A DNA stretch of 64,000 bases, from the IMG/VR virus record IMGVR_UViG_3300027143_000001, positions 45,119 through 109,118 of that record. One strand, written 5' to 3'. This document shows positions 16,036 to 36,541 of the stretch, piece after piece. This DNA comes from a virus. The notes below the pieces were generated by a model. It was not told where the DNA came from and did not search any database. It saw only the letters and a list, made by a program, of their open reading frames with translations. Both the position numbers and the translations under genes were made by a program. Each line of letters begins with the position of its first letter. Within the stretch, counting starts at the first letter, position 1.

Positions 16036-18699
16036 TTACTTGCCGCTTTCTGCGACTTTTCTGTTGGTTACATATTTTTCAAACATATCCGTTACATAGG
16101 TTCCAGCACTCAGATACGAGGTAGGGTCATTTGGATTGTCAATCTTCTGAAATTTGTACAGCTTCTCGTTACGCTTTGTGCTAGGGTCAAAATACTGGAA
16201 AGTGATACCCAAGCCAAATGCACCAGAGACGTCACGCACACCAGCAGCGGTGTAATCAAAACCAACAGCGTTCATATAGCCAGGAGCTGTCACAATGGTG
16301 TTGGGATCAGCTGCAAATGCTGAGAAAGATCCTAGGTCAGTAGAGTTCACCGTATTCTTAGCCAGATACTTGTTGAAGCGTTCCAGCGGTAATGCGTTCT
16401 CACGGATGGTAGAATAAGGAAGTGTTACTGTTACAGTTTCTCCCTGCTTAAAACCTAAAGTTTTTGCAGCACTGGAATTAATATCAACCTTGAACTTTAC
16501 CTTTACCTTCTCTCCCTGCGCATCATATGATACCGTGGCTGAATTACCCATCAGTTCTTTGATACTTACAGGAGACATGGATGCTAACTTTTCAGGTGCA
16601 ATCTTAGCACCGGTCTCTGCTACTTCTACAGAAGCAGCCGTATTTCCTGAAGCAGCGCCATCAATCAGCTGATACAATTCTGCGGAAGTAATCCCACTAA
16701 ACTCAAATGTATCACCTGTTACACGCGCACGGTCATTGTATTGTGCGTCTACACGTTGGCTTAAATAAGATTGCTGAGCATCACTTAGTCCGCTCAAATC
16801 ATATACCGGTGTTCCGTCTTCTAATCTGTACAACAACTTAGCGCTTTCATATCCAGACTTAAGGTTGCCATATCCATCAGTAATTTCTTTACTGATGTTT
16901 TTGGCATTACGTAGCAAGCTCTCGCGCTGTGTCATCAGTATGTTCATACTCGATAGCGACTTGCTGAACATATCCAACATCTTTGTGATTTCTTCTGTTT
17001 TCTTAATACCTGCATAGTCAGCAACAATCTCACGACCACGTGTATAAGTTGCTGCAGTAAACCCATCCAGCAATGATTGAGCTGCCTGCGGATTATTATT
17101 AGGATCTACAACTTTGGTATGTGTTTTCTTACCGTACTCTTTTAAGATTTCCTTGTCAGCATCTGTCAGCTGAATCCTGGTATCACCATTGGCAATCTGC
17201 TGTACTTTATACATAATGTTATAGTACTTGCCATGTTCTGCCTCACCCACCACCAGGTTCATCAAACCGTTACCGGCTCCAAACGTAGTGTTGAACAAAT
17301 TATCGCGGTTCTTGGCCATACCATCCATCAATACATCTACCCCTGTAAAGACCTGTTGTCCAGCAGCATTACGTCCTAAGTAAGATTCAGACGGAAGATC
17401 GCCTTTACCTTGTGCAATTTTAACATCCAGAGCATACTCGCGATCCTTGTTCGCCTGCTCCTGGTTCATCTCCATGATCTTAAGCTCGCGATCCTGTTTC
17501 ATCTTGGCGTAGGTTAGCTCTCTATCCTGTGCCATTTTCCATCTGGTAAGAACTACATCGTCAGACTTGATATCTACAGATGCTGTAGCATCGCTGTATC
17601 CTTTGGCCCACATCTTTGCAGTCTGGCTTTTAGCTTGTTGTGCAAAAATACCATGGATGTTTTGTGCTATAAAGTTTGCACCCTCTTCATCAAGTTTACT
17701 TGACAGAGATGATGCACCATCACGCTGGTTAATGTATGCGTCTTTTTCGTTGAGCGCATTGATGTACTTTTCTTTTACATCTGGATCCTCAATGCCATCA
17801 GGATATTTTTCTTCAATAAGCTTGATGCGTGATTCTATTTTCTCTAGCTCTGTGTCAGCTGTAGTAGTTTCTTCTGCGGTATCAGTTTGCAATTGTTTTG
17901 CAAGCTGACCAGATACCATTTGTAACGCCTGCTCACGGGATACACCCTGAGATTGCTGAATGTTACGAATAGCGCTCTCTGCCTGCACCCAGCCTTGTTG
18001 CTGTAACTGACGGTCAAAGCGATTGCCCATCTGTGCCTGCGCCCAGTTGGTAAATGCTGCGTAAGACATCTTACCATTACCATAAGTAACAATGTAAGGA
18101 TTCTTACCATCTGCCGTAGCTACCTTAACGCCAATGTTTTGCTGCTTTGCTGCATCATTTAAGAATGTTGCAATATCATCCATAGGCACAAACTCCTGCG
18201 GGCGAATCTTCTGAATAGACCCGTCACCACGTTTAGAGCTACGTAAATCTTCTTCTGCAAACCCAATAGCCTGACGACTAAAGTCATTATACTGCGCACG
18301 CATTTTAGGATCAGTACTGTTTTTGTACTGCTCCATACGTTGCTTTTGCTTTTGGTGAAACGAGGTAACCTGCATATCATATGCGAGCTCCTGGTCCCTG
18401 GAGATTGGATTAAAGATTTCCTGCGCCTGCATTACGTTGGTAGGATTGGACAAGTCCACCCCTGCCAGACTCTTAATAGAGTTCTGCAGTTTCTTCATAA
18501 CCTCCTGACGGTAGAGTTCGTTGGACTCACTGGTCAGGGGATTGTTAAGCGCAGAGTTATAGATACTCTTGACCATGTTAAAACCACGGTCGTACTCCTG
18601 CTGACGCTGGCCATAGATCTCAGTCAAAAACTGGTAATCTGGCTTGTACACCTCAGCAGGTGTAATGTTGTCTGTTATACCTTGTATGAATGTTGACAT
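16036..18699 (-). CDS. Putative virion ejection protein (887 aa)
   Basis: Long helical/coiled-coil-like ORF in the ejection-protein block; TAATG coupling with the upstream gene. Confidence 0.6.
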   Translation of the reverse strand: MSTFIQGITDNITPAEVYKPDYQFLTEIYGQRQQEYDRGFNMVKSIYNSALNNPLTSESNELYRQEVMKKLQNSIKSLAGVDLSNPTNVMQAQEIFNPISRDQELAYDMQVTSFHQKQKQRMEQYKNSTDPKMRAQYNDFSRQAIGFAEEDLRSSKRGDGSIQKIRPQEFVPMDDIATFLNDAAKQQNIGVKVATADGKNPYIVTYGNGKMSYAAFTNWAQAQMGNRFDRQLQQQGWVQAESAIRNIQQSQGVSREQALQMVSGQLAKQLQTDTAEETTTADTELEKIESRIKLIEEKYPDGIEDPDVKEKYINALNEKDAYINQRDGASSLSSKLDEEGANFIAQNIHGIFAQQAKSQTAKMWAKGYSDATASVDIKSDDVVLTRWKMAQDRELTYAKMKQDRELKIMEMNQEQANKDREYALDVKIAQGKGDLPSESYLGRNAAGQQVFTGVDVLMDGMAKNRDNLFNTTFGAGNGLMNLVVGEAEHGKYYNIMYKVQQIANGDTRIQLTDADKEILKEYGKKTHTKVVDPNNNPQAAQSLLDGFTAATYTRGREIVADYAGIKKTEEITKMLDMFSKSLSSMNILMTQRESLLRNAKNISKEITDGYGNLKSGYESAKLLYRLEDGTPVYDLSGLSDAQQSYLSQRVDAQYNDRARVTGDTFEFSGITSAELYQLIDGAASGNTAASVEVAETGAKIAPEKLASMSPVSIKELMGNSATVSYDAQGEKVKVKFKVDINSSAAKTLGFKQGETVTVTLPYSTIRENALPLERFNKYLAKNTVNSTDLGSFSAFAADPNTIVTAPGYMNAVGFDYTAAGVRDVSGAFGLGITFQYFDPSTKRNEKLYKFQKIDNPNDPTSYLSAGTYVTDMFEKYVTNRKVAESGK

Positions 18700-21600
18700 T
18701 ATCTTCCTGTCTTACGCTTGATTAATATTCTGAACATCTCGTCTGGTGTAACCACCGCTCCGCCCGTAGCAAAACCTCGTACGCCACTCATGCCTGCAAT
18801 GTCATAACCTGAATAGTTTGAATACCCTGCATAGGGATCTGCATACAACGCTGCTGCAGGATTACTTCTCAGAAGTGCATTGGTGCGATTCATCTCTGCA
18901 AGTGCTGCTTGTTTTGCAGCATCTTCTCCCAGCTCCGCTTTATAAGCTTCAAATGTCTCTCTGTAGGCTTTGATACCAGCGTCACTGTTCATTGCAGCAC
19001 TAACTGCATATGGATCAGCAGTACCTTTGCGTCCTGAACCTGAAGCATACCCTGTTGCATAGCCCGGTACGTATAAGTCCGCCATAGTCATGTCGCGACC
19101 TTGGCCTGAAAACTCAGCGTTATAAGAAATAGGATCAATATACACCTGTGGAGTCTTAACTTGCTCTTGCAATTTTTTGCGCTGGTAATTAGTCATACCT
19201 GCCATAAGTGCTCTCAGTTTATTTCTATCTTGCAGATTTTGCGAGTTTTCATTTTGCTGTCCTTCTGTTGCAAGATCCTTGTTATACTGATAAGCATACT
19301 TGGAGTTCATGTCACGCTCCGTGTTCTCAATCTGCGCGTTAAACTGTCCAGCCTGTGTAGACGTTTGACCATTGACAGTGTTGGTCTGTGCGTCGCTCAG
19401 TGCATTGTTTTGCAGGGTCTCACCAGTATTACCCATCATGGCTCCCAACGCTACGTTACCATCAGCGGAGTTTTGCGCCATGTTATTAAAATTGGCAGAA
19501 ACACCTTGGTTGTTGGCAATGGTAGACGCATTGGTAACAGTAGTCCACTCCGGGGTAACAAAATCAACCTGTTGTTTAGCAGGTCTGAAACGCTCGTTAT
19601 CGCGGGTAGATTCAAAGGCAAAGTTTACAATGTCTTGTGCCCACCACGGTCCTTGTTTTCTTCTTCCTGGAGGAACTTCTGTAGTTGTATACTCTTGACA
19701 TTCTGCCTGCGCTTTCTCTAATGAGTCATAAGGAGTAACTTTTTTTCCAGTTGGAGCAACAGGTGAAGAACCTTCATCATAGTTTACAGTTTGCACAGAA
19801 CGCGTACCATCTTCTGACTCTACGCAGTAATAAGCCTGCTTCTTACCTGGATCTTTTTCTTTTTCTACCTCAGGTGGCTGCCAATCTTCTTTAATTCCAA
19901 AATACTGGCGAGAAGTGTTGTTGCCATAAAAGTCATCAATATAAGAAGTACCAGTCTTGTCAGAATCCTGATCCGTTTTACTACCAGTTGCATCAACATC
20001 AAATCCTGCGTCTTTGAACTGCTGAATATACTCAGGTTGTCTGCCCACTTTGTTTGCGGCACGATACGCAGCCTGAAATGCAACGCGTCCCACATCGTCC
20101 ATGGCCTGAATACCTAAACGATTTGCAACAGCGTTATACACTTTGTTCTTTGTGTTTACAGGATTACCTTTCTCATCATAGATTTGACCAACAGTTCCTG
20201 TAAAAGAGTCCCAAGCTTTGGAGTTTCTAAAATCACCTTCATCACCATACACAGAACGCATCAGCAAGTTGTCTTTATTTCCTTGTAGCAAGTATTTAAG
20301 AACGTCCTCTTGCTTAAGCCCCTTAAGTTGATCCAATGTCTCCTTAGGTATTTTACCTGTGCTGTTTGGATCATTTAATATTGCCTGAAACTCTTTGAAC
20401 AATGCATCTCTCAAACCCTGGTTGTTAGCACCTTGGATGATAGACTCATATGATTTGATATCCTCTGCATACTTATTCTGATATGTTTTAGGATCATATC
20501 CCTCAACCTCAGGCGCTTCATAGTCAACTAGCTTGTTGCCTGCGTTATAAACATAAATACCATCAGGATTGTAAACCTTTTTCTGATTGGTCTTTGTGTC
20601 TTTTACTTCTATAATCTTGCCTGTCTCAGCGTCTCGTACAATGTTTAATGTACCTTTCTTGTAGCGCTTTACTTTTCTGTTGGTTTTTGGATCAACAACC
20701 TCGTCCACAAATGTCTCCTGATTAGCCGTTCCTGCATCTTGATAGCGCGGAATCATGTAGCCTGAAGTAAACGTAGGCATTTCATATGCACCGCCTTCTT
20801 TAAAATCAGTAAGATTGCTAGGTGCTGGTGCAGATCTTCTTGCGGGTGCTGCTTGTTGAGGGCGAGATCTTTGTGTAGTGTTTTGTTGCTGAGGTTGCTG
20901 TTGTGTTTGTCTTGCAGGTGCAGGTTGGCTATCTGGATCATATAGTACAGCAGCGTTACCACTTGATGCTCTATTTGTATCAGCGGCTCCAGCTTGTTGA
21001 GACTGTTTGGGGTTTTGAAAACCTTGACTCAAATCAACTTTTGTAAACTGTCTGTCACGGTCTGCATAAATCAGATCACTTTGAAAAAGGTTTTCAGTCT
21101 GTGATCCATAAATCTCATTGTATCCTGTGATTTTTCCGTTTTGGTCATAGATAGGGGTTACCTTTCTAGCTTTCAGTGAAGGTGATGAATGAGGATGGTT
21201 TTGAAATTTTCTTGCTGCATATGGCCACTCAACGCGGTACATGCTATCACCTTTAAAAAACAAATCACCAGTGTTTAGTTTTTTACCGTTTACGTCAATG
21301 CCGTAATTGTACTTGTACCAGTCGTCACCAATAAAGGGTTCATTGCTTTCTCCAATGTAGTAATGAAGGTTCTGATCACCATACATGCGATCATAAGGAA
21401 CACTGGTGTTGTAAGATTTATTGAAGCTGTGCTCATCAATGTAAAACTTTTGTCCGCTTTCTGTATTAAGAAACACATATTGATTGGGACTAAAAGTGTT
21501 AATCTGACTTTCATTGGCCATGTAACGGTGAGGCTTGCCATTGATGTAGACAATTGTAGCAGGAGTAAGTCCAATCTGATCTCCTGTTGGTCTAACCTTT

Positions 21601-22301
21601 TTTACATCACCTGCACTCTGGTATTTATGTAATCCACCCCATCTGCCTTGTGGCATTTCTTGAGGCATCATTTCTTGTGACTCTTGCTGCTGTGGCTGTT
21701 GTACCATCTCTGGTGTAACACCCAGCACTGAAGCAGCCATCTCTGCAATAGCAGGAATACCATCAGGAAAACCTTTCATGGATTCCTGAATAAGCGCCAG
21801 TGTGCTCAGCTTCTGCAAGTTGTTCTTCAACATCTCAGACGCGCTGCGCTTGGTAATGTTATCTGCCTCAGGATTTTTCAGGTCAGCAACGTATGCATTG
21901 ATCTGATATTTCTTAGCAATTTCAGCAGGCGTGTATCCTCCCTTTCTGGGAGAAAGACCAAACACCTTTTGCAACACTTCCTCATCCTTAATGCGAAGCT
22001 TGCGAGTGTTGGAATATATGAATGAACCTGCAGGTACATCAACGGGTGTACCACCCTTGCTGTGAGGTTTGCCGGTAAAGGTAAACAGTTCCAGGAAACC
22101 ATCTTTGTTGGTATCCCCTACAACAACTTCACCGCGCTCCACTTCAATGGATGCTTCTTCGCGGGGTACTGGACCCATTGTTGTTTTGACGTCGTCTTCT
22201 GCATTACCTCCCATACCCGCGTTGCGGTAACGGCTGTCATAGAAGCTATAGTCTACTTGGTCACCCAGCTTAGGGGCGGTTTTGATACGGATTCTTTGCA
22301 T
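18699..22301 (-). CDS. Putative internal cargo/structural protein (1200 aa) with xxGG motifs
   Basis: N-terminal EVERGEVV...GKPHSKGGTPV segment recalled from crAss-like cargo proteins; GRWGG, FKEGG, FATGG motifs separate distinct segments; Q-rich linkers. Confidence 0.6.
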   Translation of the reverse strand: MQRIRIKTAPKLGDQVDYSFYDSRYRNAGMGGNAEDDVKTTMGPVPREEASIEVERGEVVVGDTNKDGFLELFTFTGKPHSKGGTPVDVPAGSFIYSNTRKLRIKDEEVLQKVFGLSPRKGGYTPAEIAKKYQINAYVADLKNPEADNITKRSASEMLKNNLQKLSTLALIQESMKGFPDGIPAIAEMAASVLGVTPEMVQQPQQQESQEMMPQEMPQGRWGGLHKYQSAGDVKKVRPTGDQIGLTPATIVYINGKPHRYMANESQINTFSPNQYVFLNTESGQKFYIDEHSFNKSYNTSVPYDRMYGDQNLHYYIGESNEPFIGDDWYKYNYGIDVNGKKLNTGDLFFKGDSMYRVEWPYAARKFQNHPHSSPSLKARKVTPIYDQNGKITGYNEIYGSQTENLFQSDLIYADRDRQFTKVDLSQGFQNPKQSQQAGAADTNRASSGNAAVLYDPDSQPAPARQTQQQPQQQNTTQRSRPQQAAPARRSAPAPSNLTDFKEGGAYEMPTFTSGYMIPRYQDAGTANQETFVDEVVDPKTNRKVKRYKKGTLNIVRDAETGKIIEVKDTKTNQKKVYNPDGIYVYNAGNKLVDYEAPEVEGYDPKTYQNKYAEDIKSYESIIQGANNQGLRDALFKEFQAILNDPNSTGKIPKETLDQLKGLKQEDVLKYLLQGNKDNLLMRSVYGDEGDFRNSKAWDSFTGTVGQIYDEKGNPVNTKNKVYNAVANRLGIQAMDDVGRVAFQAAYRAANKVGRQPEYIQQFKDAGFDVDATGSKTDQDSDKTGTSYIDDFYGNNTSRQYFGIKEDWQPPEVEKEKDPGKKQAYYCVESEDGTRSVQTVNYDEGSSPVAPTGKKVTPYDSLEKAQAECQEYTTTEVPPGRRKQGPWWAQDIVNFAFESTRDNERFRPAKQQVDFVTPEWTTVTNASTIANNQGVSANFNNMAQNSADGNVALGAMMGNTGETLQNNALSDAQTNTVNGQTSTQAGQFNAQIENTERDMNSKYAYQYNKDLATEGQQNENSQNLQDRNKLRALMAGMTNYQRKKLQEQVKTPQVYIDPISYNAEFSGQGRDMTMADLYVPGYATGYASGSGRKGTADPYAVSAAMNSDAGIKAYRETFEAYKAELGEDAAKQAALAEMNRTNALLRSNPAAALYADPYAGYSNYSGYDIAGMSGVRGFATGGAVVTPDEMFRILIKRKTGR

Positions 22302-22340
22302 AAACTTTAGAAGTTTAAAAGGGTAGGAAGGCTAAACATC

Positions 22341-22360
22341 TCACATTTAGAATTTACAAA
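22341..22360 (-). promoter_or_regulatory. Phage-specific repeated promoter-like motif, copy 1
   Basis: TTTGTAAATTCTAAATGTGA upstream of the 22301 start. Confidence 0.6.
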
Positions 22361-22404
22361 TTTAATCGCAAAAGTCCTACTCTTGTAGATGTTTTTTGTA
22401 GAGG

Positions 22405-24483
22405 TTATAAAAATTCAATCTCACCACCGGCAGCCAGGATTGCTGCAATCTCTTCTGCAGAGACTTCATAGGTTCCACCCTGGCGGTATCTTTTTGTACC
22501 TCCGTAGCGTGCTCCTACTTGTGAGAAGTCTTGCATGGGTGTACCCATTACTAGTTGTGAATTAGGACCTACAGCCATGTTGGTACGCTCGTTACCAAAT
22601 GCATTCTTGGGGTTGTAGGCATTGTACATGGAGTCTGTGTTGTTGGTTTCACGCAACAGTTGGTCGTAGCTTTTGTTTCTGCGCTGGTCGCGTTTTTCCG
22701 CCCAGTCTGCAAAGTAACCCAAACCGACAATAGCATTGTTACCTGCCACAAATCCAGCTTCGTCACCCTGATATTTTGTTTGTGATGTTTGCTGCATTTT
22801 AACGCCAGGATTTTCAACAGTACCCAAACCGCTTCCTACTGCAACATCACCCAACACACCTTCAAGTTGTTGTTGTCCAAGCATTGCATTGTACATACCA
22901 GATCCTGGACCTGTGCCTTTAACAGGCGTGCCTGTACCTATACTGTTTGCAGGTGTATTCTGCGCAGGTTGGTTAGCAGTTTCTTCTGTTTGACCAGTTT
23001 CACTTCTCCACATCTCCATAAGCTTGGCTTGGTTTGCGCTGTTCTGCATTACGTCTTGACGCATTGCATTCTGTGCAAACCACTGGTTAAATGGAACAGC
23101 ACCCCCTGGTTGAAAGCGCATCATACCACCTTGTCTTTTCTGCTGCAAATTTCCTCTGTCCATGTAGTCTTGAAAGCCTGCAGGCATTTGAGGCATTACA
23201 GGTGCAGCACTTGCAGCAGGATTTGGAGTATACATGCTCTCCATATCCATCATGTTACCCATACCTGATCCTTTAGACCCCCTATGAGGAAGCGGCTGAG
23301 ATGCGGGAGGTGTAGTAGTGGATGTCTGAGAAGTTGTAGTAGAAGATCCGCTACCCATGTATCCAGATTGAGCACCAGCAAAATCATCATACATATTGCC
23401 AGCTTCTAATGTAGCACCCATCCCTGATCCACCAGACTTTGTCATCCTGGTTTTTGGATCCGGATTCATATCCTGTTGTGCAGGAGGCGTTGCAGGTGTA
23501 GGATTGGCTTTGTCATAACGTGCTTTCAATACATCCTGAGTGTTACCATACTCGCCAGTACCTGTATTCATAAGCTTGCTGTCGTGCTTGTCTTTAGCAA
23601 ACATTTTCTCATAGCCAAGTGTTGCCCCTGACAATCCTGATGCAAGTCCAATCATACCTTTTAAGAATGAACCTTTTGGTAAGTATTGAGCAACACCGCG
23701 AGGATCTGTCAGAGTTGTAGCTGTAGCCAAACCACGATTCCATTTACTATTGTCAAGGTTCTCCAGCCTGTGACGACTTACTCTGTCTACCTGGTAGTCA
23801 CCCTCTTGGTACATATCGCTATGTGGACCACTATAGTAATCTCCTCCGTCATCATACATGGACAACTCACCACCCTCTTCCCAGGTACCAAAGCGCTTAT
23901 GCCAGTACAGTGGTGAGAATGGATCTTTTGCTTTTGCAGAATCTCTGCCACCCATGCGGTCCCAGAAACGCTCGCGACGGTCTTCACTACCATGTTGAGT
24001 GTAGTCTTTCATACCGTCATATCCACCATGCACCACTTTGTATTGATCTCCTTTTTTAGCAAGCACCATCCACTTCTTACCATCACTTGTGGATTCTTTC
24101 TTTACACCTACTTTGGTGAAACCCATGTTCTTGTAGCGTTCAGGAATTCCTCCGCCATCCTCATAAGATTCCACTTCTTCTGGCAAATCTTCTCCAAGAT
24201 ATCCTCCAAAGCGTTTGCTAAAGTCCATTGACATGCCTCCTTGTTCCATAAAAGGAACTGTGTACACGCCTCCAAAATTATACATACCGCCACACTCATA
24301 GCAGATATTACCACCCATCTCAGCTTTTTTCCAGCCGCCACCACGTTCCTTATACCACTTGGCAGCATAACCGTTCGCATATGCAGAAGGATAAACATCA
24401 TACTTAGCTTTAGCAGCAGCTTTTGCTCTGCTCCAAAGTTCAGGGTTGGTTGGGGTGTTGCCACCGTTTTTCATGTATTCCAT
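22405..24483 (-). CDS. Modular low-complexity cargo protein (692 aa), many xxGG motifs, two small basic modules
   Basis: Nine xxGG motifs flank modules in the first 215 aa; basic Trp/Tyr-rich modules at aa 9-52 and 113-201. Confidence 0.65.
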   Translation of the reverse strand: MEYMKNGGNTPTNPELWSRAKAAAKAKYDVYPSAYANGYAAKWYKERGGGWKKAEMGGNICYECGGMYNFGGVYTVPFMEQGGMSMDFSKRFGGYLGEDLPEEVESYEDGGGIPERYKNMGFTKVGVKKESTSDGKKWMVLAKKGDQYKVVHGGYDGMKDYTQHGSEDRRERFWDRMGGRDSAKAKDPFSPLYWHKRFGTWEEGGELSMYDDGGDYYSGPHSDMYQEGDYQVDRVSRHRLENLDNSKWNRGLATATTLTDPRGVAQYLPKGSFLKGMIGLASGLSGATLGYEKMFAKDKHDSKLMNTGTGEYGNTQDVLKARYDKANPTPATPPAQQDMNPDPKTRMTKSGGSGMGATLEAGNMYDDFAGAQSGYMGSGSSTTTSQTSTTTPPASQPLPHRGSKGSGMGNMMDMESMYTPNPAASAAPVMPQMPAGFQDYMDRGNLQQKRQGGMMRFQPGGAVPFNQWFAQNAMRQDVMQNSANQAKLMEMWRSETGQTEETANQPAQNTPANSIGTGTPVKGTGPGSGMYNAMLGQQQLEGVLGDVAVGSGLGTVENPGVKMQQTSQTKYQGDEAGFVAGNNAIVGLGYFADWAEKRDQRRNKSYDQLLRETNNTDSMYNAYNPKNAFGNERTNMAVGPNSQLVMGTPMQDFSQVGARYGGTKRYRQGGTYEVSAEEIAAILAAGGEIEFL

Positions 24484-24491
24484 AGGTAAGC

Positions 24492-27400
24492 TTATATTTG
24501 TCCACCATCTTCCTTACGTCTGTGCTGATAAGGAATGCGCTGGCTGGATGTCTTTGTTCTTTTAAATTTTTCTTTCTCTGAAGCACTAAGTTCTGACGAC
24601 GTTTTAGGTGTGTCATCAGATACACGTTTAGAGGGTCTGCATGCAGGATATCCTTTACGCTTTTCACCTTCCTGTCTTCCGCAAGGTTTACCGGTTTTTA
24701 CATCAACCCACTTCTCTGCAAACCAGCGGTCAAGTCCGCCATGCTCTCCTCCCCCTACAAATTTACTCAATGCTCCGCCAAAAGCAAAACCTTCTGGTGT
24801 AGATTCTTGTTCATCCATCATCATACCTGCACCTACAGCTGGTATTGCAGCAGGTAACATGCGAATCAACTTGCGTTTATCTTCTATAGAAGTGTTGCCT
24901 TTGAAGAACCTGTTGAGGTATTGGTCTTTGATCATATAGTCTACCATATCATCTGAAGGATTCTGCAATGCCTGAATGGCTTGCTCCATACTTATACCTG
25001 ATTCCTGAGCATATCTCTTTGCAAGGTTCATGCGCGCCACCATTAACTCAGAGTGAAGTTCTTTTGGTGAGGCCGCCCATGTTTTAACTTTGTCTTTATT
25101 TGCTTTCCTATATAATGGAAGTTCAACATCCTCAATCTTTTTAATCTTGTCATCATACTCATCTACAATTTGTATTGCAAAATCATAATGATCATTTGTA
25201 GAAACTTTTCCGGCAGCCACGTCGTCATTGAGCTGCTGAAGCTTTGCATTCTTTTCATCACCTAAGTCAATAAGTCTTTGACGTATTTGCTGATAACCAA
25301 CATCATCTCGCCACAGCTTTGGTTCAACCATTGCATCTGCAAACATTTTACCTGTAGGTGTAGATGTGTTTGCAAAAAAGTAAGGAGTGATGGTTGAGTC
25401 ATAATTTGTAATAGCGCTTGACCAGGGAAAAACTGGATCCCCAAATCTTTGAAAAGTGTGACCTGTTTCGTGTGCACTTGTTGCAGCAACACCTTTTGGA
25501 TCAACATGATAAAATCCCTGATTTCTTAAGGTAATGTTATAATCGTTATTGTTTACACCAAGTATCTTACCCCTATTCTCTGTAATGTAATCTTTAGCAG
25601 TATCAACAATTTTAGAGTCTGCGGCAAGATCTGAAGAACGACTGCTTACAAGCCTTGAAGGATTAGTGTTCAAAATATTGTTAGAGTCCATAACTGAGCT
25701 ATTGGTATCAAACGTCAGTCGGAATCTATTAACCGTTGCTGGATCAAGTGCGGTAGCGCGGTCAACAACTTGACCTCTGATTTCTCCGTCAGGGCCATAA
25801 ATCCACTGCTTGACAAAGTCCTCACCTTCTTTAAGTGCCGCGTCTTGTTTGGCCCATACCTTTTGCTTTTGTGATTTTGTCATAGGAAAGATCTCAAAGA
25901 ATGGACGCTCTCCTTCTACCACTTCAGCCAACCCTTGACCAAGTCCATATAAATGCTCATTAACGGCAGGAGTCTTTTTTTCTCTGACAAACTTAGCAAG
26001 CTTACCATCTCCTTTGGGTTGCCACACACTGGCATCATATGCAAAGCTTCTAAATTTACTAGGTAAATTACCAAAGATACTTGCAGAAGCAGGAGCTGCT
26101 GCTTGTGACATTTGTGCTACATCTTGCGAAGCATTCACCATCCTGCCTATGTTTCCTGCACGTGTAGCATCGTCTATAATTCCTGCACCTACTAGGTTTA
26201 GTGGATCCGATCCTGCTAAGATTAATTCTTCTAGCGCCTGTGTACTGCCGGGTTGAACATAAGATTCCAGGCTACCATAAGTCATAGGCTTTGTACTTCT
26301 GCCAGACACAGCATTTGCCATATCCCCACTGAACGCTCCTCTGACAAGATTGCTGGTATACCCTAATGGTGCAAACACTCCCAGTCGTGACGCATTCTTT
26401 GCTTCTTCAGGACTCAAGTCTTCATCATTGTAGTCAATACCAAATAGATTAGCCATACCCTGGCGGAACTGTGTACCCATGTCTGGGTTCAAATTGTATC
26501 TAGCCTGGGATTCTCCAATAATGCTAAGCTGCTCAGGTGTAAATGTCTTTAACCACTCTTGGCGGTTTCTATCACCTTGAGGGTTTTGTGCCAAGATTTG
26601 TTCTGCTACTTTAGTACGTGCATAATCATATGCCCTTTTTTTAGAGCGCTTGTCGCTGTATGCATCAAAGCCCACCGCACGGGCAAATCCTGTGTCTTCT
26701 TTACCCATCCACTCTTTGGCAAACTTGTCCATATCACCTGCGTATTGGCCACGATCTGACATGACCTCTACAGGTTTTCTATAAGTGAATACAGGGGCGT
26801 TGTTTTTAGTGTCCCACGATGTGTAACCACTATCAAACAAAAAATCAAAACGTCTGTCATTGGCACGATCGTAATTAAACTTACGCTGCCCTTCTGCAGG
26901 CTTTACATATTTTTCAATGAATGCTTCTTTTTCTTCTACTGTCAGCTCTCTTCCTCTGCGCTGCTCCTCACGATTAAGCATATCAGACCACTGTTGTGCG
27001 CCTTGTGTGTATGCCTTCCAACCAGCTTCATATTCTGCACGCTGGTCAGCATTATTCATAGCATCATAGTTTGTAACTGGAGCATCAACGCTTTTGCGCC
27101 TGGGCCCACCTTTGACAAACTTCTGCAATTTTGAATTACTGTAGGTTACACCACCGTCTCGCTGAACTTCATGAAAAGTAAACCACCAACCAAAAGGCGA
27201 GTTCTTATCCTTCTTACCCATGTCACGGTGCAATAGTTCAGCGTACGTGTGCCCCGTAGTGCCATGATCGCGTATAGGATATTCATCCAGGTCATCAGGA
27301 TTCATGTGCCTATAATGATCCATTGTTCGCTTCATCTCAGGATCATCTTTATACTTATCATGCATGGCTTTAAAAGTCTGCTCGCCAAAGTATCCATCGG

Positions 27401-28286
27401 CTTCTACACCTAAAAAGTTCTGGATGTTTTTAATCTTTTCAGGAGTAAGATGATAATATGATGTCATGGCAATACCAGGCTCATACAATCTGTGAGTTTT
27501 ATACTCTACAGTCCCTGGAGTCTTGTACGTGTCTTCGCCATACCTAAGTCTTTCCAATAAAACCTCAAGATTCTGTCCTACATTGCTTAAGCCAGGGTCT
27601 TTGACATGCGCCATTTCTGCAATAAGATTGGATATAAACTCCTCACGAGGCTCTTTACCAACTCCAATTTCATTAAAAAAAGAGTTGTAATGAGCTCTGT
27701 TTTCTTGGTCTGCAAATGCGCCATCAAAGTTAATTTTATCAACACCTTTACCTCTGTTTACCAACTTAGCAAGCTCAGGATAAACATTAAGAAGGTCTAC
27801 ATACATTTTTGCATTGGGATGAGACATATCAATGTTTACAGGATCTGTATCTTTTCTGGTGTTGTACCTGTCACTATTCCACATAAACTCTTGTTCACCC
27901 GCTGCTCTAGCTTTGGCAAATGCTTCATCTCTAGTGGGATATTGAGAGTAGTCATCTAGTCCCCAGTTCTTAGGATTTAACGCTGCCCCTACAGTTTTAA
28001 GCATGCCTGGTTTTTTAATAGCCCTGGTTTTAATTTCTAAGCCAGGCATTGAGGTGCCGGATTCCCATATGTTATCCTGCACATCAAACAGTGCTAAGTC
28101 TTGAGGAGGAACAACATGCTCTCCTTGTTCATTAACATAATATCTTTGGTCTTTGAACCTTGGGTCCAGGAATACACTCTCCCCTGTGGGAAGTTTATAC
28201 TCTCTCCACCCATTCTCTCTAGGACCTCCTGTTACATACTTGCGCAAGTTTCTTTTGCCAAAGTGTGAATTGTAATCATTATTCAT
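24492..28286 (-). CDS. Modular cargo/polyvalent-like protein (1264 aa): PG-binding-like motif, zincin HETGH, C-terminal basic Cys module
   Basis: IQNFLGVEADGYFGEQT (peptidoglycan-binding-1-like); AHETGH at 25458-25475 followed by SPKELHSE; C-terminal GLDRWFAEKWVDVKTGKPCGR...YPACRP. Confidence 0.65.
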   Translation of the reverse strand: MNNDYNSHFGKRNLRKYVTGGPRENGWREYKLPTGESVFLDPRFKDQRYYVNEQGEHVVPPQDLALFDVQDNIWESGTSMPGLEIKTRAIKKPGMLKTVGAALNPKNWGLDDYSQYPTRDEAFAKARAAGEQEFMWNSDRYNTRKDTDPVNIDMSHPNAKMYVDLLNVYPELAKLVNRGKGVDKINFDGAFADQENRAHYNSFFNEIGVGKEPREEFISNLIAEMAHVKDPGLSNVGQNLEVLLERLRYGEDTYKTPGTVEYKTHRLYEPGIAMTSYYHLTPEKIKNIQNFLGVEADGYFGEQTFKAMHDKYKDDPEMKRTMDHYRHMNPDDLDEYPIRDHGTTGHTYAELLHRDMGKKDKNSPFGWWFTFHEVQRDGGVTYSNSKLQKFVKGGPRRKSVDAPVTNYDAMNNADQRAEYEAGWKAYTQGAQQWSDMLNREEQRRGRELTVEEKEAFIEKYVKPAEGQRKFNYDRANDRRFDFLFDSGYTSWDTKNNAPVFTYRKPVEVMSDRGQYAGDMDKFAKEWMGKEDTGFARAVGFDAYSDKRSKKRAYDYARTKVAEQILAQNPQGDRNRQEWLKTFTPEQLSIIGESQARYNLNPDMGTQFRQGMANLFGIDYNDEDLSPEEAKNASRLGVFAPLGYTSNLVRGAFSGDMANAVSGRSTKPMTYGSLESYVQPGSTQALEELILAGSDPLNLVGAGIIDDATRAGNIGRMVNASQDVAQMSQAAAPASASIFGNLPSKFRSFAYDASVWQPKGDGKLAKFVREKKTPAVNEHLYGLGQGLAEVVEGERPFFEIFPMTKSQKQKVWAKQDAALKEGEDFVKQWIYGPDGEIRGQVVDRATALDPATVNRFRLTFDTNSSVMDSNNILNTNPSRLVSSRSSDLAADSKIVDTAKDYITENRGKILGVNNNDYNITLRNQGFYHVDPKGVAATSAHETGHTFQRFGDPVFPWSSAITNYDSTITPYFFANTSTPTGKMFADAMVEPKLWRDDVGYQQIRQRLIDLGDEKNAKLQQLNDDVAAGKVSTNDHYDFAIQIVDEYDDKIKKIEDVELPLYRKANKDKVKTWAASPKELHSELMVARMNLAKRYAQESGISMEQAIQALQNPSDDMVDYMIKDQYLNRFFKGNTSIEDKRKLIRMLPAAIPAVGAGMMMDEQESTPEGFAFGGALSKFVGGGEHGGLDRWFAEKWVDVKTGKPCGRQEGEKRKGYPACRPSKRVSDDTPKTSSELSASEKEKFKRTKTSSQRIPYQHRRKEDGGQI

Positions 28287-28304
28287 GAACGGCAGCGTTA
28301 ACAG

Positions 28305-30458
28305 TTATAAACCTTTGATAAATTTTTGAAGGATAGCGTTCTCATAAGACTGACCGCCGTTACGTTTAATTTCCATAGTACCTGTAGTGGGGTAGTGCTG
28401 AAACATGTTAGCAAAAGTACGCACGTTTCTTACGTACTCGTTGTTTGTGTTATTTGGATTCTGCACAATAGCTTCCTCAGGACTGATACCCTCATCAATT
28501 GCCTTAATAACAGTTTTCTTATCACCTCTTCTCAGACGACCAGGCATGCTGTACAGATAAGGTAAGAAGTCTAAGTAATTGCTTTCATCAAGCGCAGCAG
28601 TCTCACCCTTGGCAGCCAGCTTTCTCAACTGCGGTAGGTTCTGTGCGTTTGCAATCATAGCTGCTACAAATGCTTTCTCAGGATCAGTGTCAACACTCTC
28701 AGGTGTAATTCCGTAAAGCTTCATATCTGCATCACTCAAGTTCTTAAGCTTCACTTGCGTTAGCCCTCTACTGTACTCTGTCTTAGGATTAATGTTATTG
28801 CCTTTGGCAAGACCATTTGACATCCATCTTGCTATAAGATTTTGAGTACTCGCTGCTGTACTACGGCCAAAATCAGATTCAGAAAATCCTCCAGCCTTGG
28901 TTCCAAATCCAGTCTCCTGTCCATAGATTCCAAACGTGTTGGACACAATACCGTTATACTCACGATTTGAAATGTTGTAGCGCTTCATGAACTCTTTCTT
29001 AAAATTCTCATCGTTCACTTTGTTCAGAATCTGATTAAAACCTGCCTTCTCAGACAGCGCTTTATAATCTACATCATATGCCGTTTGAACTTTAAGATCT
29101 TTGTCTACAAACGGCATATCAAAACTGCGCGTTGTCAAGAGTCTTGACGCTTCCTGAAATCCAGGATCCGTATTCTGCATCATAGTTGGCGTACTTACAC
29201 CAACGGTCTCGCCATTCATAGTAATCCAGTTCTTACCTTTTTCTGCAAACATGCCTGGTGAATATGTTTGCCAGCGACTCTCAGCACCTTTAGAACGGGT
29301 AAAGAACTGTGGGTCTTGCTTCTTTATCTTTTGGTCCAGCCAGTTGCGCAACTTTGTATTTTTGTTGTCATTACCAAAATCGCGTGTGATTAACTGAATG
29401 TGTTCATTAGATGCAGGTGCCATAATAGGATCACCATTGTCATCTGTAAGATACCGCCAAATCGTATCATCAGGGTTATCTGAATCGGGATCATCAATCC
29501 ATTCCCCTGATGCGTCTAAATGTTTGTCTGAAGAAGGATTAACTGTATACTCTTGTTCAAACATTGTACCCGTTCCACCATTCATAAAAAGAGTAAAACT
29601 GATTGTACCGTCTGAGTTTTTGAAAATAGAACCAGGTTTTACCAATCCTGCATGATGGGGATGACCTTGATCAAACGCAAACTGTACAATGTCACCACCT
29701 TTAATATCATTAGTATCATAGTTCAGTTTCCAGTTGGGCACTTCACCAGCTTTTACAGCATCTTGAAATGCGGAATTTGAATAGTAGTGAAGGTCTTCAC
29801 CGACATTAGCATCATTAATTGTATAACATACGCCTGATATACAATACATTGGTGATCCATAACCGTTTGGGTCATTGTAAGCAGCTTGCTTAACACTCTC
29901 AGGCATGTAGTCTGTATTTGCAACCTCAAAATTTTGTGCACCTAGCCTATTAATTGCGTTTAATATACCCTGCTCATAATCGTACCTTGGACCCTTGTTG
30001 ATGTTATCCTGTGTAAGGTTTCTGCGATTTACCAAGTCTTGGTCTACCCACTGTGTTCCAGGAGCTGGTTGCGCGTCAATACCGTAGCGGTCTGCGTCGG
30101 CAGGTATTTGAACAATAGGTCTTGCCGCCTCAGCCTTAACGGGTCCTTCAGCTTCTAACCCACCTTGTGCTTTAGGTAAAAATTTATACAGACCACCATA
30201 ACGCATCTCATACTCATCTACGTATTGTGCACCAGGAAAATGGACATTGGTCTCATCATAAGGCTGTAGCTCTGCCTGAATACCGTTATCACTCACAGCC
30301 TTGATGCGATGAGGTGTAGGGTTATACAAAGTGTCGCTAGGAATCCTATAATTAGTTCCAGGAGCAGGTGCTCCATTTAAGAATCCTTGGTTGCTAACAA
30401 CAGGAGTAGTCTTTTGTCTCTGCTCCTGTATGAATCTTAGTAGTACTTCTTTTTTCAT
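28305..30458 (-). CDS. Virion-associated peptidoglycan hydrolase: NlpC/P60-CHAP-like plus lytic transglycosylase-like domains (717 aa)
   Basis: YCISGVC...GGDIVQF...PHHAGLV (Cys/His pattern); GIYGQETGFG...SRGLTQVK...DPEKAFVAA...YVRNV (catalytic Glu and GLxQ motif of SLT/lysozyme fold). Confidence 0.65.
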   Translation of the reverse strand: MKKEVLLRFIQEQRQKTTPVVSNQGFLNGAPAPGTNYRIPSDTLYNPTPHRIKAVSDNGIQAELQPYDETNVHFPGAQYVDEYEMRYGGLYKFLPKAQGGLEAEGPVKAEAARPIVQIPADADRYGIDAQPAPGTQWVDQDLVNRRNLTQDNINKGPRYDYEQGILNAINRLGAQNFEVANTDYMPESVKQAAYNDPNGYGSPMYCISGVCYTINDANVGEDLHYYSNSAFQDAVKAGEVPNWKLNYDTNDIKGGDIVQFAFDQGHPHHAGLVKPGSIFKNSDGTISFTLFMNGGTGTMFEQEYTVNPSSDKHLDASGEWIDDPDSDNPDDTIWRYLTDDNGDPIMAPASNEHIQLITRDFGNDNKNTKLRNWLDQKIKKQDPQFFTRSKGAESRWQTYSPGMFAEKGKNWITMNGETVGVSTPTMMQNTDPGFQEASRLLTTRSFDMPFVDKDLKVQTAYDVDYKALSEKAGFNQILNKVNDENFKKEFMKRYNISNREYNGIVSNTFGIYGQETGFGTKAGGFSESDFGRSTAASTQNLIARWMSNGLAKGNNINPKTEYSRGLTQVKLKNLSDADMKLYGITPESVDTDPEKAFVAAMIANAQNLPQLRKLAAKGETAALDESNYLDFLPYLYSMPGRLRRGDKKTVIKAIDEGISPEEAIVQNPNNTNNEYVRNVRTFANMFQHYPTTGTMEIKRNGGQSYENAILQKFIKGL

Positions 30459-33400
30459 CGTGGACTATTCAAATGCTTGGTTAAACCTACTTTCAAGATC
30501 ATCTTCTTATCTGTAGAAGCAGTCTTACGCAAGATGACTCTGTTACCATAGTGACGGAACTTCTTACGCTGAAGAGCAGGCTTGTCATAATTAATATACT
30601 GAGGATTTACTGTACGTTGGTAACCATTACAATTGGTAATCCACATTGGTGTCTGGTCAAAGCTAAATTCACCGCGGTCGTTAGTGTTGTCCCAGAACTG
30701 ATTGAAGCGATACTTGTTCTCTTCCTTAGCCACCATGATCTGCATGTTGTACTGTGTAATCACGGGTTGCGCCACCAATGCAAACGGATCATTCTTAGGC
30801 TTGGTGTTCAGCTTTAGAATACCTGAATGCTGTTCTGAATTATAGATGATTGCGGTATCAAAGTTCTCATCCAACACGTGGTTGTAATCAACACCATTGT
30901 TATAATATTTGTACGCCTCCATCCAGTACTCCACACTTCTAAGGGTTGTTACACCGGTGGTGTTGACTACAGGAAACTCAATCTCCCATCCTTTTTGCTC
31001 ACCATAGTACTCAGTAAACAGGTCCCACTTAGTGTTGTGTTTCCAGATACCAGAACCCTTCACTGTAAAGAAATGCTCATATGCGGGCATGTTCAGGTCT
31101 GGTGCCCAGCTGTGAAAACTGATCCACTGCTTGCTCTTTGGGTCATAAGACACCGTCCAATTACAAGGCTCAAAACAGTTAGGGTCATCAAACTTACAGG
31201 GGCATGTTTTGTTAATTGGATCGCGCGGGCGAGGTGTAAGAGTTACAGTACATGTACTTGTACTACCCTTTCCATCATCCAGTAGCAATGTGTATATAAC
31301 CTGGTCTCCCACAGGAACTACCACTGCGCTTCCATCTACGGGTACTGAAAATGATTCTACAAGGTTCAATGATACGTAGTTTACCTCAAGCGTTGCGTTC
31401 ACAGCGCTTATAGTTGTCCAATATAACAGTACTTGTTCTCCTTCTGTAAACACGTTAGTGTTTGCTTCAAAATTACACCCTATGCCTGGAATGCATACTG
31501 ATGCCGAAACAGCATCTACAACAGATTGCACAGAGGCAGGGCTTGACGCATTTACTGCATATTGATAAGATCCTATTCCGTTGGTAGGTCCGTTAAAACA
31601 TGATATTTTTCCCAAAGTTTCTTCTACGTTTGCTGGAACTGACGCAGTTGGTCCTGCATAAATTCCATATACAAACTGGTTGTCAGGACCCGATGCTGAA
31701 CCACCCAGTGTAGCAGACTGAAGAAAGCACAAATCGTCAGAAAGACCTGACTGCTGAGCAGTAGATTGGCTATCCGTTATGACTAATAATATTTGCCTAA
31801 AGGCAGAACTGGCAGAGCGGTCTCCAAGCTGAGAAGAAGTTTTGTTATTCAAAACATCCCTTCCCTCCAAAGCGCCATTTCTAATGTGTGTTCCATTACA
31901 ATACCAGTTATCAATAAGCCATGTTTCAACTTCGGCACCTGTAATGGTATTACTCATAGAAAATCCATTAGGTGTCATGGAGACCTGATCGTTTTGACCC
32001 GACCAGGATACAATACCTACCTGGATGTTACCTTCCTGCATAGACTGAAGAATCGCAGGGGATTCCAAAAACTGCCTTATAAAAGATATCTCAGCTAATG
32101 CAACTGAACCAACGGGGATGTTAGAAACACATCCTGTACTACCTGAACTGTCCACAGCAATCACAATGTCAATCAAGCAGGATGCACTAGGTTGTGGTAG
32201 TCCTACAATGGCGTCAACCACAGGATCCACAGGAGTAATAGGCGGAGGTGGCGTCTGGCCACAGATATAGTAAGGCACACCGGTAGGACTGTCAAAGTAC
32301 AAGTCACGGCGCTTAGGGATATAGTCCTTCTTAGAGAAATACAACAGTTCATACTGCTGATCATACATTGTCTGGCAACCAATACCTGCTACAGGATTAT
32401 CGTATAGTGGAAAGTCAGGATACGCTTCCAGTAACTTAGACGGCAGATGCTCATTGAACCAGAACTTCAGACCGTCACGGCTAATCTCTGTTACTCCTCC
32501 ACCACCGTACTGCATAATTTTACCTGTCTTCTGAGACATAAAGAACAAACCAAATGGTGTGTTCACCGCAGAACGGGATGATATACATGATGCATAATCT
32601 AGGGCGTCGTCTGCATTGACAACGCTTTGCATATTCTGCTGGAACAATCCGCCATCTCCAATGGTGATTTTTACGTCACCTTTGGTCTGCAATGTATCAA
32701 CACCAACAAATTGTACAGGTTCAGCATCCTCAAACAGGATAACTGCTCCCTGTGCATTCAGACTTTTGATAGTTGATATCTTGCCACTAAAGTCTTTATA
32801 ATTCAACGGGAGGTAGTTCCTCCAGTTGTCTCGCTTCATTCCTGAACGCTGTGGTAAACTATAGACAGCCCTGTTTGGGAAATACTCAAAACATGAGGAA
32901 TACAAAGCGGGGTCATAGTCCCGTGGTAGGACAGATCCCCAGCTTGCAGTGTTGTTGAAGAGTTTGCTGGCAGATAATGAAGTGTCGTATTTGGCATAGA
33001 TTGGTGTTTTGATCATGTCTGTGCGGAACATGGTACTCAGGTCATTAAATGAGTTTCCATATACGTCATAGAACTTTTCACGGTCATCTTCTCCATAGTC
33101 ACGGTAAGCCATGTTTAGCTCACTTTCACAGAAGAAATCACGTACCCCATTGTAAAACAGGTATGCCCAAACATTTCTCAACAAGAAAGTGCCTGTATTA
33201 TTACCTCTGTCAAAGCGGTGAAAATCAGATGGCGTGTTGAAGTTAATACCAGTTGGCTTATTGATGTCAATTCCAAGAAATGATACTGTCTCTGTTTCTA
33301 CGGTAACACCAAAATCAGTAACGTCGTACTTACTCAGGTTAGCCCAATAGCGAGGACAAGGTCCGTTGACATAAATACGATAGTCCATCTCTGCACCATC

Positions 33401-36190: not shown

Positions 36191-36541
36191 TTATCTGATC
36201 GCAAAGTTTTTCTTATTGAGTGCTTTATACACGTTCTCCGTCAGGTGACCATTCAGCCATGCCTGGGATTCTTCGTCTATAATATCTATGTCTGTAGTGA
36301 TGGCCATTGTCAGGTGAAAGATTTCATGAGCCAGCAGATTGTGCGTAAGCGAATCTTCTTTCAGTGCAATAATGTACTCTGAGTTGCCCCAGTTAAACAC
36401 CACGCCATATGTATCCAACACATCCACATTAGCCTTTTTTTTCTTCATCACATGTTGCTGCAACTCTTCCATAGTAGAGGTTACAATCAGGATCACCTTG
36501 CACTCATACAAAGGAACCTTGATAGTTGTCTTAGACATCAT
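36191..36541 (-). CDS. Small zincin-like protein (HEIFH)
   Basis: LAHEIFHL...DEESQAWL: HExxH plus a downstream Glu; overlaps the stop of the upstream gene. Confidence 0.6.
   Translation of the reverse strand: MMSKTTIKVPLYECKVILIVTSTMEELQQHVMKKKKANVDVLDTYGVVFNWGNSEYIIALKEDSLTHNLLAHEIFHLTMAITTDIDIIDEESQAWLNGHLTENVYKALNKKNFAIR

Follow-up and report, generated by a model that had tools for sequence, protein, structure and literature searches.

Packaged phage proteins and the block of four modular genes

The ejection proteins gp14, gp15 and gp16 of phage T7 and gp7, gp16 and gp20 of phage P22 are packaged in the virion, leave it before the DNA and form a trans-envelope conduit, and T7 gp16 has a lytic transglycosylase domain. 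To our knowledge, these proteins are not mosaics of mini-modules and have no repeated junction motif. Here we describe four adjacent genes, encoding proteins of 717, 1264, 692 and 1200 amino acids (aa), and a short Gly-Gly (GG) peptide that recurs in them. They lie in a window of 64,000 nucleotides (nt), which comprises bases 45119–109118 of a single 109,118-bp virus contig (IMG/VR record IMGVR_UViG_3300027143_000001; CheckV completeness 85%). A first-pass annotation of the window had read the four proteins as packaged cargo built from modules delimited by this motif. The four proteins showed no detectable homology to the T7 and P22 ejection proteins. A cell-wall enzyme is shared (717-aa protein), and the 692-aa protein has a conserved hydrophobic helix.

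Polyvalent proteins are likewise large phage proteins of unrelated enzymatic and binding domains, and they are believed to accompany the DNA (Iyer et al. 2017, PMC5512222). Judged by domain content, the four proteins are polyvalent proteins in the sense of that paper, with several unrelated catalytic or binding domains per chain (CHAP-like, lytic-transglycosylase-like, DUF5872, DUF5754, a weak PG_binding_1 and HExxH). The signature domains MPTase-PolyVal (PF18818) and LPD23 (PF18838) were not matched in the genome at E ≤ 1, and ART-PolyVal (PF18760) was found only in relatives (P0194 and P0203). The modules here are unusually small (40–100 aa) and numerous. The main text of PMC5512222 contains neither "glycine" nor "linker", so no defined junction peptide is given there.

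The cargo proteins C1 (gp45) and C2 (gp46) of phage crAss001 are partly disordered; short segments of them dock on the portal, tail rings and muzzle, and threading in a partly unfolded state was proposed (PMC10172136). Peptides from along the gp45 chain were found in virions, and different segments of one gp45 lie in the capsid and the tail (PMC10172136). The four genes sit where crAss001 encodes these cargo proteins, after the muzzle gene and before the giants associated with RNA polymerase (RNAP). Gp45 and gp46 have no sequence relationship to the four proteins, and no Gly-Gly motif is reported in PMC10172136. The gp45 profile PF25725 (crAss_CARG1) had zero matches at E ≤ 1 across the whole 109-kb genome.

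Nearly every gene of the window lies on the minus strand, in the order terminase, portal, major capsid, tail-fibre-like genes, a 1910-aa muzzle-like protein, the 717-, 1264-, 692- and 1200-aa proteins, and giants of 887, 1756, 4198 and 2012 aa. PHROG matches were obtained among the structural-module genes. The portal had 31% identity to that of Leptolyngbya phage Lbo-JY46 and 21–24% identity over 85–96% of its length to Crassvirales portals. A DFDxD motif is the mark of crAss-like virion RNAPs (preprint 10.1101/2020.03.07.982082), and the 4198-aa giant contains DFDVD. Related portal, terminase and major capsid genes and a giant DFDxD virion RNAP, as in Crassvirales, are thus all present. Because of the portal, terminase and capsid relationships and the DFDVD giant, the source is a distant, uncultured crAss-like phage. 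No close DNA relative of this genome was found among cultured phages.

The 1910-aa protein had 25% identity across 79% of its length to gp042 of Cellulophaga phage phi4:1, which was detected in virions by tandem mass spectrometry (MS/MS). Of the genes in the phi4:1 block after gp042 (gp041 to gp035), only one small one lacks an annotation as virion protein from MS/MS. By this synteny, the four proteins are probably virion cargo that is injected. Two genes after the muzzle-like homologue, phi4:1 encodes gp040 (895 aa, 25065–27752), an MS/MS-annotated virion protein whose N-terminal module is of the IPSNSITMKG type also seen in relatives of the 717-aa protein. Gp040 carries NFQAGG, SYQNGG, TFQIGG and KFQSGG (14 GG against 7.1 expected; 4 [FYW]xxGG against 0.6). 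It matched the 1200-aa protein marginally (E = 0.01) and has fewer mini-modules. The cargo-position proteins of Lbo-JY46, the phage with the closest cultured portal, showed no motif enrichment; only a C-terminal element of the 692-aa protein was shared, at the end of a 674-aa protein.

Proteases specific for GG with an upstream hydrophobic residue include adenain, pS273R of African swine fever virus (ASFV) and the C39 double-glycine leader peptidases. The adenovirus enzyme recognizes (M/L/I)XGG↓X, and pS273R cuts pp220 and pp62 at GG↓X (arrow, cut). In these systems, as in the four proteins, a GG with a hydrophobic residue upstream of it marks where functional units meet; they were the model for an earlier idea that the motif is a cleavage site. 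No account of the motif turned up in literature searches on DUF5872 and DUF5754, on polyproteins of crAss-like phages and on Gly-Gly in ejection proteins. The class of polyvalent or cargo proteins and the processing idea are known; within the literature searched, the defined, conserved junction peptide is new.

The Gly-Gly connector at module junctions

All penta- and hexapeptides listed in the first-pass annotation were found in the four minus-strand open reading frames (ORFs). The list had left out GG pairs of the 692-aa protein that are off-pattern or inside folds (KERGG, VVHGG, DRMGG, TKSGG, LAAGG), as well as GEHGG in the 1264-aa, DIKGG, FMNGG and TKAGG in the 717-aa, and AGMGG, HSKGG and PRKGG in the 1200-aa protein. 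The null model was 2000 shuffles preserving the composition of each protein. Plain GG showed no excess over Gly content (40 observed, 33.6 expected, P = 0.13), and here the proposed enrichment over a Gly-matched background failed. It held for the motif in context, which was 2.8- to 4-fold above the shuffles: [FYWMAK]xxGG occurred 27 times against 9.6 expected (reached by 0 of 2000 shuffles), and [FYW]xxGG 14 times against 3.4. The rest of the proteome (30,646 aa) was at expectation for both (31 vs. 33.1 and 12 vs. 12.2). The main source of the [FYWMAK]xxGG signal was the 692-aa protein (14 vs. 4.1). The 1264-aa (6 vs. 2.2, P = 0.02) and 717-aa proteins (4 vs. 1.2, P = 0.03) were marginal, and the 1200-aa protein (3 vs. 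2.2) was not significant by itself. The motif class was defined on the same four proteins, which makes these P values optimistic; homologues supply the independent support.

More than 1,410 homologues of the 692-aa protein were found, all on uncultured contigs, many of 100–126 kb. At 2,099 GG sites in 120 homologues, the residue at position −3 from the first Gly was M (24%), Y (17%), K (13%), A (9%) or W (6%), which is the class named in the first-pass annotation. After the GG, E was enriched 3.2-fold at the first position and I 4.3-fold at the second. These class preferences were position-specific at −3, −2, −1 and the first two positions after the GG. The simplest form of the connector is [M/Y/F/W/K]-x-x-G-G. 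The fuller form is GG-x-x-[KR]-[FY]-x-x-GG (GG-x6-GG), with GGMMRFQPGG, GGTKRYRQGG, GGALSKFVGG and GGLHKYQSAG as examples. Neighbouring GG pairs at most 12 aa apart made up 27.6% of pairs compared with 9.6% in shuffles, with peaks at 4, 6, 8 and 9 aa.

Break-points were located by all-against-all BLAST of 226 family members, as positions where homology stops while both proteins continue. A GG lay within 5 aa of 61% of 102,823 internal homology end-points, against 18% of random positions, and the control dipeptides KK, EE, AA, SS, PP, NN and DD reached at most 1.3-fold. The right-hand ends peaked exactly at the second Gly. When distinct junction types (each in at least 3 proteins) were counted, 98 of 192 were near a GG, with 15.6% expected (P = 4e-30). 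The AlphaFold model of the 692-aa protein gave the same picture: of its 11 order/disorder transitions, 7 had a GG within 3 aa (P = 0.002), which supports for this protein the placement of the motif at domain boundaries. In its linkers, GG residues were 67% identical among 69 homologues, compared with 18% for other linker residues, 15% for other Gly and 51% for folded blocks (Mann-Whitney P = 2e-8); identity at −3 was 29% against a background of 18%. The homologue counts are not phylogenetically independent, a problem lessened, but not removed, by counting each junction type once and by comparing conservation within linkers.

Among the stand-alone DUF5754 genes, 16 out of 19 stop exactly at FGTW and lack the EEGG; a GG in leader or tail was found in only 2. 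Since stand-alone genes mostly do without the motif, it belongs to the junctions and not to the modules. The motif is real, is selected and marks module junctions. Each of the four proteins is a string of independently folding modules of about 40–200 aa on disordered linkers with the connector peptide. The proposal that the motif delimits modules was borne out by the break-point, junction-type, transition and linker-conservation tests; the mosaic part of the plug-and-play idea also stood, modules being exchanged between relatives in many architectures.

The Gly codons at motif sites followed genome usage, with no dominant codon pair. The constraint therefore acts on the protein, and a cause at the DNA level (recombination microhomology or a Shine-Dalgarno-like GGAGG) was ruled out. 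It is scarcely credible that the motif marks join points only as a recombination scar, or that it is a by-product of Gly-rich composition. The modules are clearly shuffled and plain GG is not above Gly content, as such an origin would allow; the excess of the contextual motif, the conservation of linker GG far above its surroundings and the lack of any codon or nucleotide signal speak against it.

Two of the three boundaries between the four genes are fused in relatives, in each case at connector peptides. The 1264-aa and 692-aa genes are one ORF in P0017 and P0033, which read through the boundary as ...RKDQGG...MEFMREGGNVPTNPELW. In P0131 and P0132, a homologue of the 717-aa protein is fused to the 1264-aa core through EGG-MHYGNPALMKFVKGGP. 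The window's own 717-aa protein has NGG-QSYENAILQKFIKGL at its end, and the 1264-aa protein starts with NDYNSHFGKRNLRKYVTGGP, with the internal copy GGVTYSNSKLQKFVKGGP. Because the 717-aa end and the 1264-aa start both carry copies, a connector copy was kept on both new ends after fission.

The connector might be a passive linker, in which GG is only a flexible, fold-insulating spacer and the residues around it are without function. The junction-specific occurrence of the motif agrees with this, and so does the strong conservation of the Gly pair compared with the modest identity at −3. We nevertheless consider a mere spacer improbable: the class preferences around GG hold across the 2,099 sites, the GG-x6-GG units are regular with a central [KR][FY], and connector copies persist at free termini, where no spacer is needed.

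Possible roles of the connector

The reading that we favour, with a rough probability of 0.4, is that the connectors remain uncleaved and act as hinge and docking element for stored, threaded cargo. The Gly pairs would be hinges that permit compact storage of the chain and its single-file passage through portal and tail. The exposed aromatic/basic hexapeptide could be a multivalent docking site for the inner portal and tail surface, for DNA or for other connectors, a proposal modelled on crAss001, where short gp45 segments occupy sites on the portal, ring and muzzle proteins. Once ejected, the chain would bring the cell-wall enzymes (CHAP and transglycosylase-like) and the small basic modules to where they act. 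An uncleaved connector is favoured because of the tandem GG spacing, the copies on both ends after fission, the Pro that directly follows GG at two conserved sites, the undetected protease families and the example of crAss001 gp45. The main text of the crAss001 paper has no word starting with "cleav" or "protease" (PMC10172136).

Several points weigh against this reading. The presence of the four proteins in the virion is inferred from gene order alone, and the docking partners named above are hypothetical. A passive hinge would need no class preference at −3. Stand-alone modules lack the motif, so that a module can evidently work and be packaged without it. The giant RNAP-type cargo has no motif excess, so docking would be restricted to the modular proteins. 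The analogy with crAss001 is weak, as the gp45 profile was unmatched.

The first-pass annotation had also considered a general capsid-loading tag, by which any motif-bearing protein would be recruited into the procapsid. The block is in cargo position, the most conserved element of the family is a C-terminal peptide of GG plus helix, and several relatives start with a connector, as a tag would predict. The motif was indeed found at N- and C-termini in single instances, but not as a rule: the terminal 25-aa windows contained it in 51 of 355 and 48 of 361 cases, with 54 expected in both. The giants of 887, 1756, 4198 and 2012 aa, which are cargo by synteny, showed no excess (0 to 2 copies vs. 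1.1 to 3.3 expected). Proteins with many copies and stand-alone modules with none also fit a tag poorly. A general loading tag is unlikely, and we give it only a slender chance.

Second after the uncleaved connector we rank, though we hold it doubtful, the reading that the connectors are processing sites at which a phage-borne protease would cut after GG, during assembly or after ejection, and free the mini-modules and enzymes. The cutting enzyme could be the HETGH module, the CHAP domain or the HEAFH zincin of the RNAP giant, or else one that was not recognised. At the module borders, the motif is exposed in disordered linkers that a protease could reach, and the GG with its upstream hydrophobic residue recalls the known GG-specific proteases. 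Fused and split gene versions coexist at junctions. A cut after YEDGGG would give a start at IPERY, near the M-IPxRY start of the shortest stand-alone DUF5754 genes. One chain can carry enzymes of the periplasm and, in relatives, of the cytoplasm (SET, ART, GNAT). Processing is also foreseen in the literature: zincins were proposed to process polyvalent proteins (Iyer et al. 2017, PMC5512222), and fused RNAP polyproteins are expected to be cleaved (phi14:2 preprint).

The protease searches were negative. As the first-pass annotation had noted, no canonical prohead protease was recognised, and the Pfam S78, S77, ClpP and S49 profiles were unmatched in this 85%-complete genome (PF04586, PF03420, PF00574 and PF01343, together with PF18818). 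An S77, S78, ClpP or S49 prohead protease in the structural module, as in systems of the T4 internal-protein or phiKZ inner-body type, was thus not found. PF02902 (Ulp1/adenain-type, clan CE) and PF03412 (C39) were unmatched as well, which at 85% completeness does not prove absence. Pfam found no peptidase in ten unannotated ORFs of the structural module.

The sites themselves also differ from those of the GG-specific proteases, which have a hydrophobic residue at P4, any residue at P3 and Gly at P2 and P1. In the connectors the preferred M/Y/W/K residue sits at P5, three before the first Gly, and P4 is mostly A/E/K/Q/R at the 2,099 sites. The Pro of the conserved sites would lie at P1′, and cuts at tandem sites 4–9 aa apart would give tiny peptides. 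The same pattern (VVHGG, DRMGG) occurs inside the folded DUF5754 module. The HETGH core is found in about 7 relatives, whereas the motif is found in more than 1,400 proteins. The fused zincin-RNAP giant of 4198 aa, of the type expected to be cleaved (phi14:2 preprint), has 1 motif copy against 3.3 expected.

A more specific version, in which a GG-specific system with an unrecognised protease (the HETGH core, the DUF5754 module or a 116-aa HEIFH protein) would free a dozen or more mini-effectors, appears rather unlikely. If true, it would be a bacteriophage counterpart of polyprotein maturation of the adenovirus and ASFV type, and DUF5754 and DUF5872 would gain a function.

The first minutes of an infection are governed by the proteins that a phage injects, and the organisation of crAss-like cargo is almost unstudied. 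A junction peptide that is present at almost all joints of more than 1,400 mosaic proteins, and is more strongly selected than the folded modules beside it, suggests a common mechanism (cutting, docking or threading) that permits free swaps of mini-effectors. With the motif, module limits can be set in thousands of unannotated proteins and new mini-effectors can be sought, and phi4:1 gp040 is a ready cultured system for experiments on it. If the connectors govern loading or ejection, they could guide the design of phage particles that deliver foreign proteins.

Features of the four proteins and their surroundings

The features of the block and of the structural module are listed in Table 1.

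Table 1. Genes, modules and connectors discussed in the text (window positions; residue numbers refer to the respective protein)
Feature	Position	Strand	Basis or remark
Large terminase	55800-57998	-	minus-strand block
Portal	53050-55779	-	minus-strand block
Major capsid protein	49987-51645	-	minus-strand block
1910-aa muzzle-like virion protein, directly upstream of the block	30455..36187	-	phrog_37948, E=3e-61
717-aa modular protein P0003	28305..30458	-	ORF; module limits from whole-library HMMER search
N-terminal module of 717-aa protein (residues ~13-100), ending EYEMRYGG-LYKFLPKAQGG	30159..30422	-	connector at 30159-30197
CHAP / NlpC-P60-like papain-fold domain of 717-aa protein (residues 140-335)	29454..30041	-	Atlas structure comparison
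Lytic-transglycosylase-like region of 717-aa protein (residues 460-660)	28479..29081	-	invariant G-x-x-G-Q-E-T and S-R-G-x-T-Q-I-K (alignment A6)
C-terminal connector remnant of 717-aa protein, NGGQSYENAILQKFIKGL, then stop codon	28308..28361	-	homologous to EGGMHYGNPALMKFVKGGP in P0131/P0132
1264-aa modular protein P0002	24492..28286	-	N-terminal connector, 370-aa variable region, 770-aa conserved core, C-terminal DUF5872-C
N-terminal connector copy of 1264-aa protein, MNNDYNSHFGKRNLRKYVTGG	28224..28286	-	Y-x-N/S...L-x-K-[FY]-V-x-G-G pattern, as in internal junction
Internal junction of 1264-aa protein, GGVTYSNSKLQKFVKGG (residues 378-394), before conserved core	27105..27155	-	alignment of relatives
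HETGH of 1264-aa protein (residues 939-943), candidate zincin site	25458..25472	-	H939, E940, H943 invariant in 7 homologues
Connector GGALSKFVGG (residues 1170-1179), before DUF5872-C	24750..24779	-	115 homology starts; residues invariant in alignment A4
DUF5872 C-part mini-module, basic, two Cys	24546..24746	-	PF19197, E=1e-14, profile positions 52-111
8-nt gap between 1264-aa and 692-aa genes	24484..24491	-	one ORF in relatives
692-aa modular protein P0001, 18 GG sites, most motif-dense of the four	22405..24483	-	ORF, shuffles, AlphaFold
DUF5872 N-part mini-module, helical, between MKNGG and KERGGG	24334..24459	-	Pfam and AlphaFold, pLDDT ~90
Disordered linker (residues 57-110), six motif copies AEMGG, YECGG, YNFGG, MEQGG, KRFGG, YEDGGG	24148..24324	-	pLDDT <50
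DUF5754 module (residues 111-201), nearly invariant in family	23881..24153	-	PF19058, E=3.9e-8
Gly-rich hydrophobic helix GSFLKGMIGLASGLSGATLG (residues 268-294), conserved	23602..23682	-	Kyte-Doolittle 1.0; confident AlphaFold helix 273-294
Connector GGMMRFQPGG (residues 452-461)	23101..23130	-	disorder-to-order transition; G453, G460 invariant
C-terminal element ARYGG-TKRYRQGG plus helix YEVSAEEIAAILAAGGEIEFL	22408..22515	-	70 homologues
1200-aa protein P0004, fewer motif sites, larger folded blocks	18699..22301	-	ORF, shuffles
Connector GGLHKYQSAG (residues 222-231)	21609..21638	-	G222, G223, K226, Y227, G231 invariant (A3) in otherwise divergent Q/P-rich linker
Connector region GGAYEMPTFTSGYMIPRYQDAG (residues 503-524)	20730..20795	-	G503, G504, A523, G524 invariant (alignment A3)
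4198-aa giant, HEAFH (residue 1147) and DFDVD (residue 2877) in one ORF	3..10727, continuing upstream of window	-	virion-RNA-polymerase-like

The N-terminal module of the 717-aa protein occurs at 40–65% identity in about 90 proteins of 110–2,800 aa, usually near the N-terminus and sometimes internally. Of the peptidoglycan hydrolases claimed for this protein, the CHAP fold was supported, all ten Atlas rows being CHAP domains (TM by query 0.51–0.57). The lytic transglycosylase has conserved sequence motifs only, and neither the Pfam nor the PDB profile search matched this region. Its GQET and GxTQIK segments presumably correspond to the ES and GLMQ motifs of family-1 lytic transglycosylases, which they resemble. 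Pfam gave zero matches for the 717-aa and 1200-aa proteins and ten short relatives, the CHAP region included. PDB sequence searches with the 1264-, 717- and 1200-aa proteins were unmatched.

At the internal junction of the 1264-aa protein, the homology of 5 of 6 aligned relatives starts, and KFVKGGP was present in 6 of 6 relatives covering the site. The peptidoglycan-binding motif reported for the variable region was a sub-threshold PG_binding_1 match (19.5 bits, cut-off 23). The zincin of the core held as a conserved HETGH, with the assignment made from this motif while the profiles were unmatched. An Atlas feature match to LPD23 (0.90, 146 shared features) is a weak lead, and the AlphaFold model of the core was too poor to judge a zincin fold (mean predicted local distance difference test, pLDDT, 42). 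The HETGH core is common to only about 7 of the 202 relatives found with it. The three HExxH proteins announced for the window do exist (HETGH, HEAFH and HEIFH).

The small basic modules were confirmed by Pfam as DUF5872 and DUF5754 mini-modules. The DUF5872-C module is 80–90% identical across about 200 otherwise unrelated architectures. Its partner domains in relatives include LysM, YkuD, SLT, glucosaminidase, SET and ADP-ribosyltransferase (ART) domains, with the ART-PolyVal of P0194 and P0203 among the last. DUF5872-N occurs as a stand-alone 57-aa gene in Phage C72C1 and inside a cyanomyophage protein; in tblastn with the 692-aa protein, this mini-module alone was matched, in Synechococcus myophages and Phage C72C1. 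The two halves of Pfam DUF5872 behaved as independent mini-modules, the C part standing before the N part both here (24334–24746, over the 1264-aa/692-aa boundary) and in fused relatives. The same order was seen in a 337-aa basic protein (121–1134) of Synechococcus phage S-BM3, beside the small terminase gene. Giant viruses and polinton-like viruses also have DUF5754 and DUF5872, according to Pfam and two papers.

The AlphaFold model of the 692-aa protein was built on a 70-sequence alignment (mean pLDDT 63), with confident blocks at residues 8–50, 111–200, 216–342, 461–502, 561–614 and 664–692. Foldseek with this model was unmatched in PDB, and Foldseek and VIA-align otherwise gave only non-significant or generic helical matches. 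Between the motifs of the disordered linker, relatives carry module insertions of up to about 250 aa. The near-invariant residues H152, D160, H164, R169, R172, W174 and D175 of DUF5754 hint at a possible activity. DUF5754 was also seen as many stand-alone genes of 90–120 aa (P0367–P0486), on contigs of up to 226 kb.

The conserved residues of the hydrophobic helix are L268, P269, K275, G279, A281, G286, L289, G290 and K293, and the modelled helix is possibly a membrane-inserting segment of an ejection protein. In the C-terminal element, G669, G670, G686 and E690 were the only invariant columns among the 70 homologues. A looser version, FATGGAVVTPDEMFRILIKRKTGR, ends the 1200-aa protein (18702–18776). 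This GG-plus-helix element may be a separate assembly or packaging signal. In the 1200-aa protein, RWGG, KYQSAG, FKEGG, RYQDAG and FATGG lie in linkers that otherwise diverge, and all five were retained in orthologues with 67% and 33% identity.

Three further genes of the surroundings were recorded. The head-tail structural module includes, at 47615–48046 (minus strand), the gene of a ferritin-like protein of 143 aa (DUF5856, E = 1.5e-13; weak Ferritin match). A 437-aa SbcD/Mre11-like "DNA repair exonuclease" (phrog_704, E = 1.9e-49) lies at 38965–40278 (minus strand), amid tail and virion genes. The 116-aa ORF with HEIFH (36191–36541, minus strand) is located between the muzzle-like gene and the next structural gene; its sole Pfam match was weak (DUF5097), and it could be a minimal zincin-like protein.

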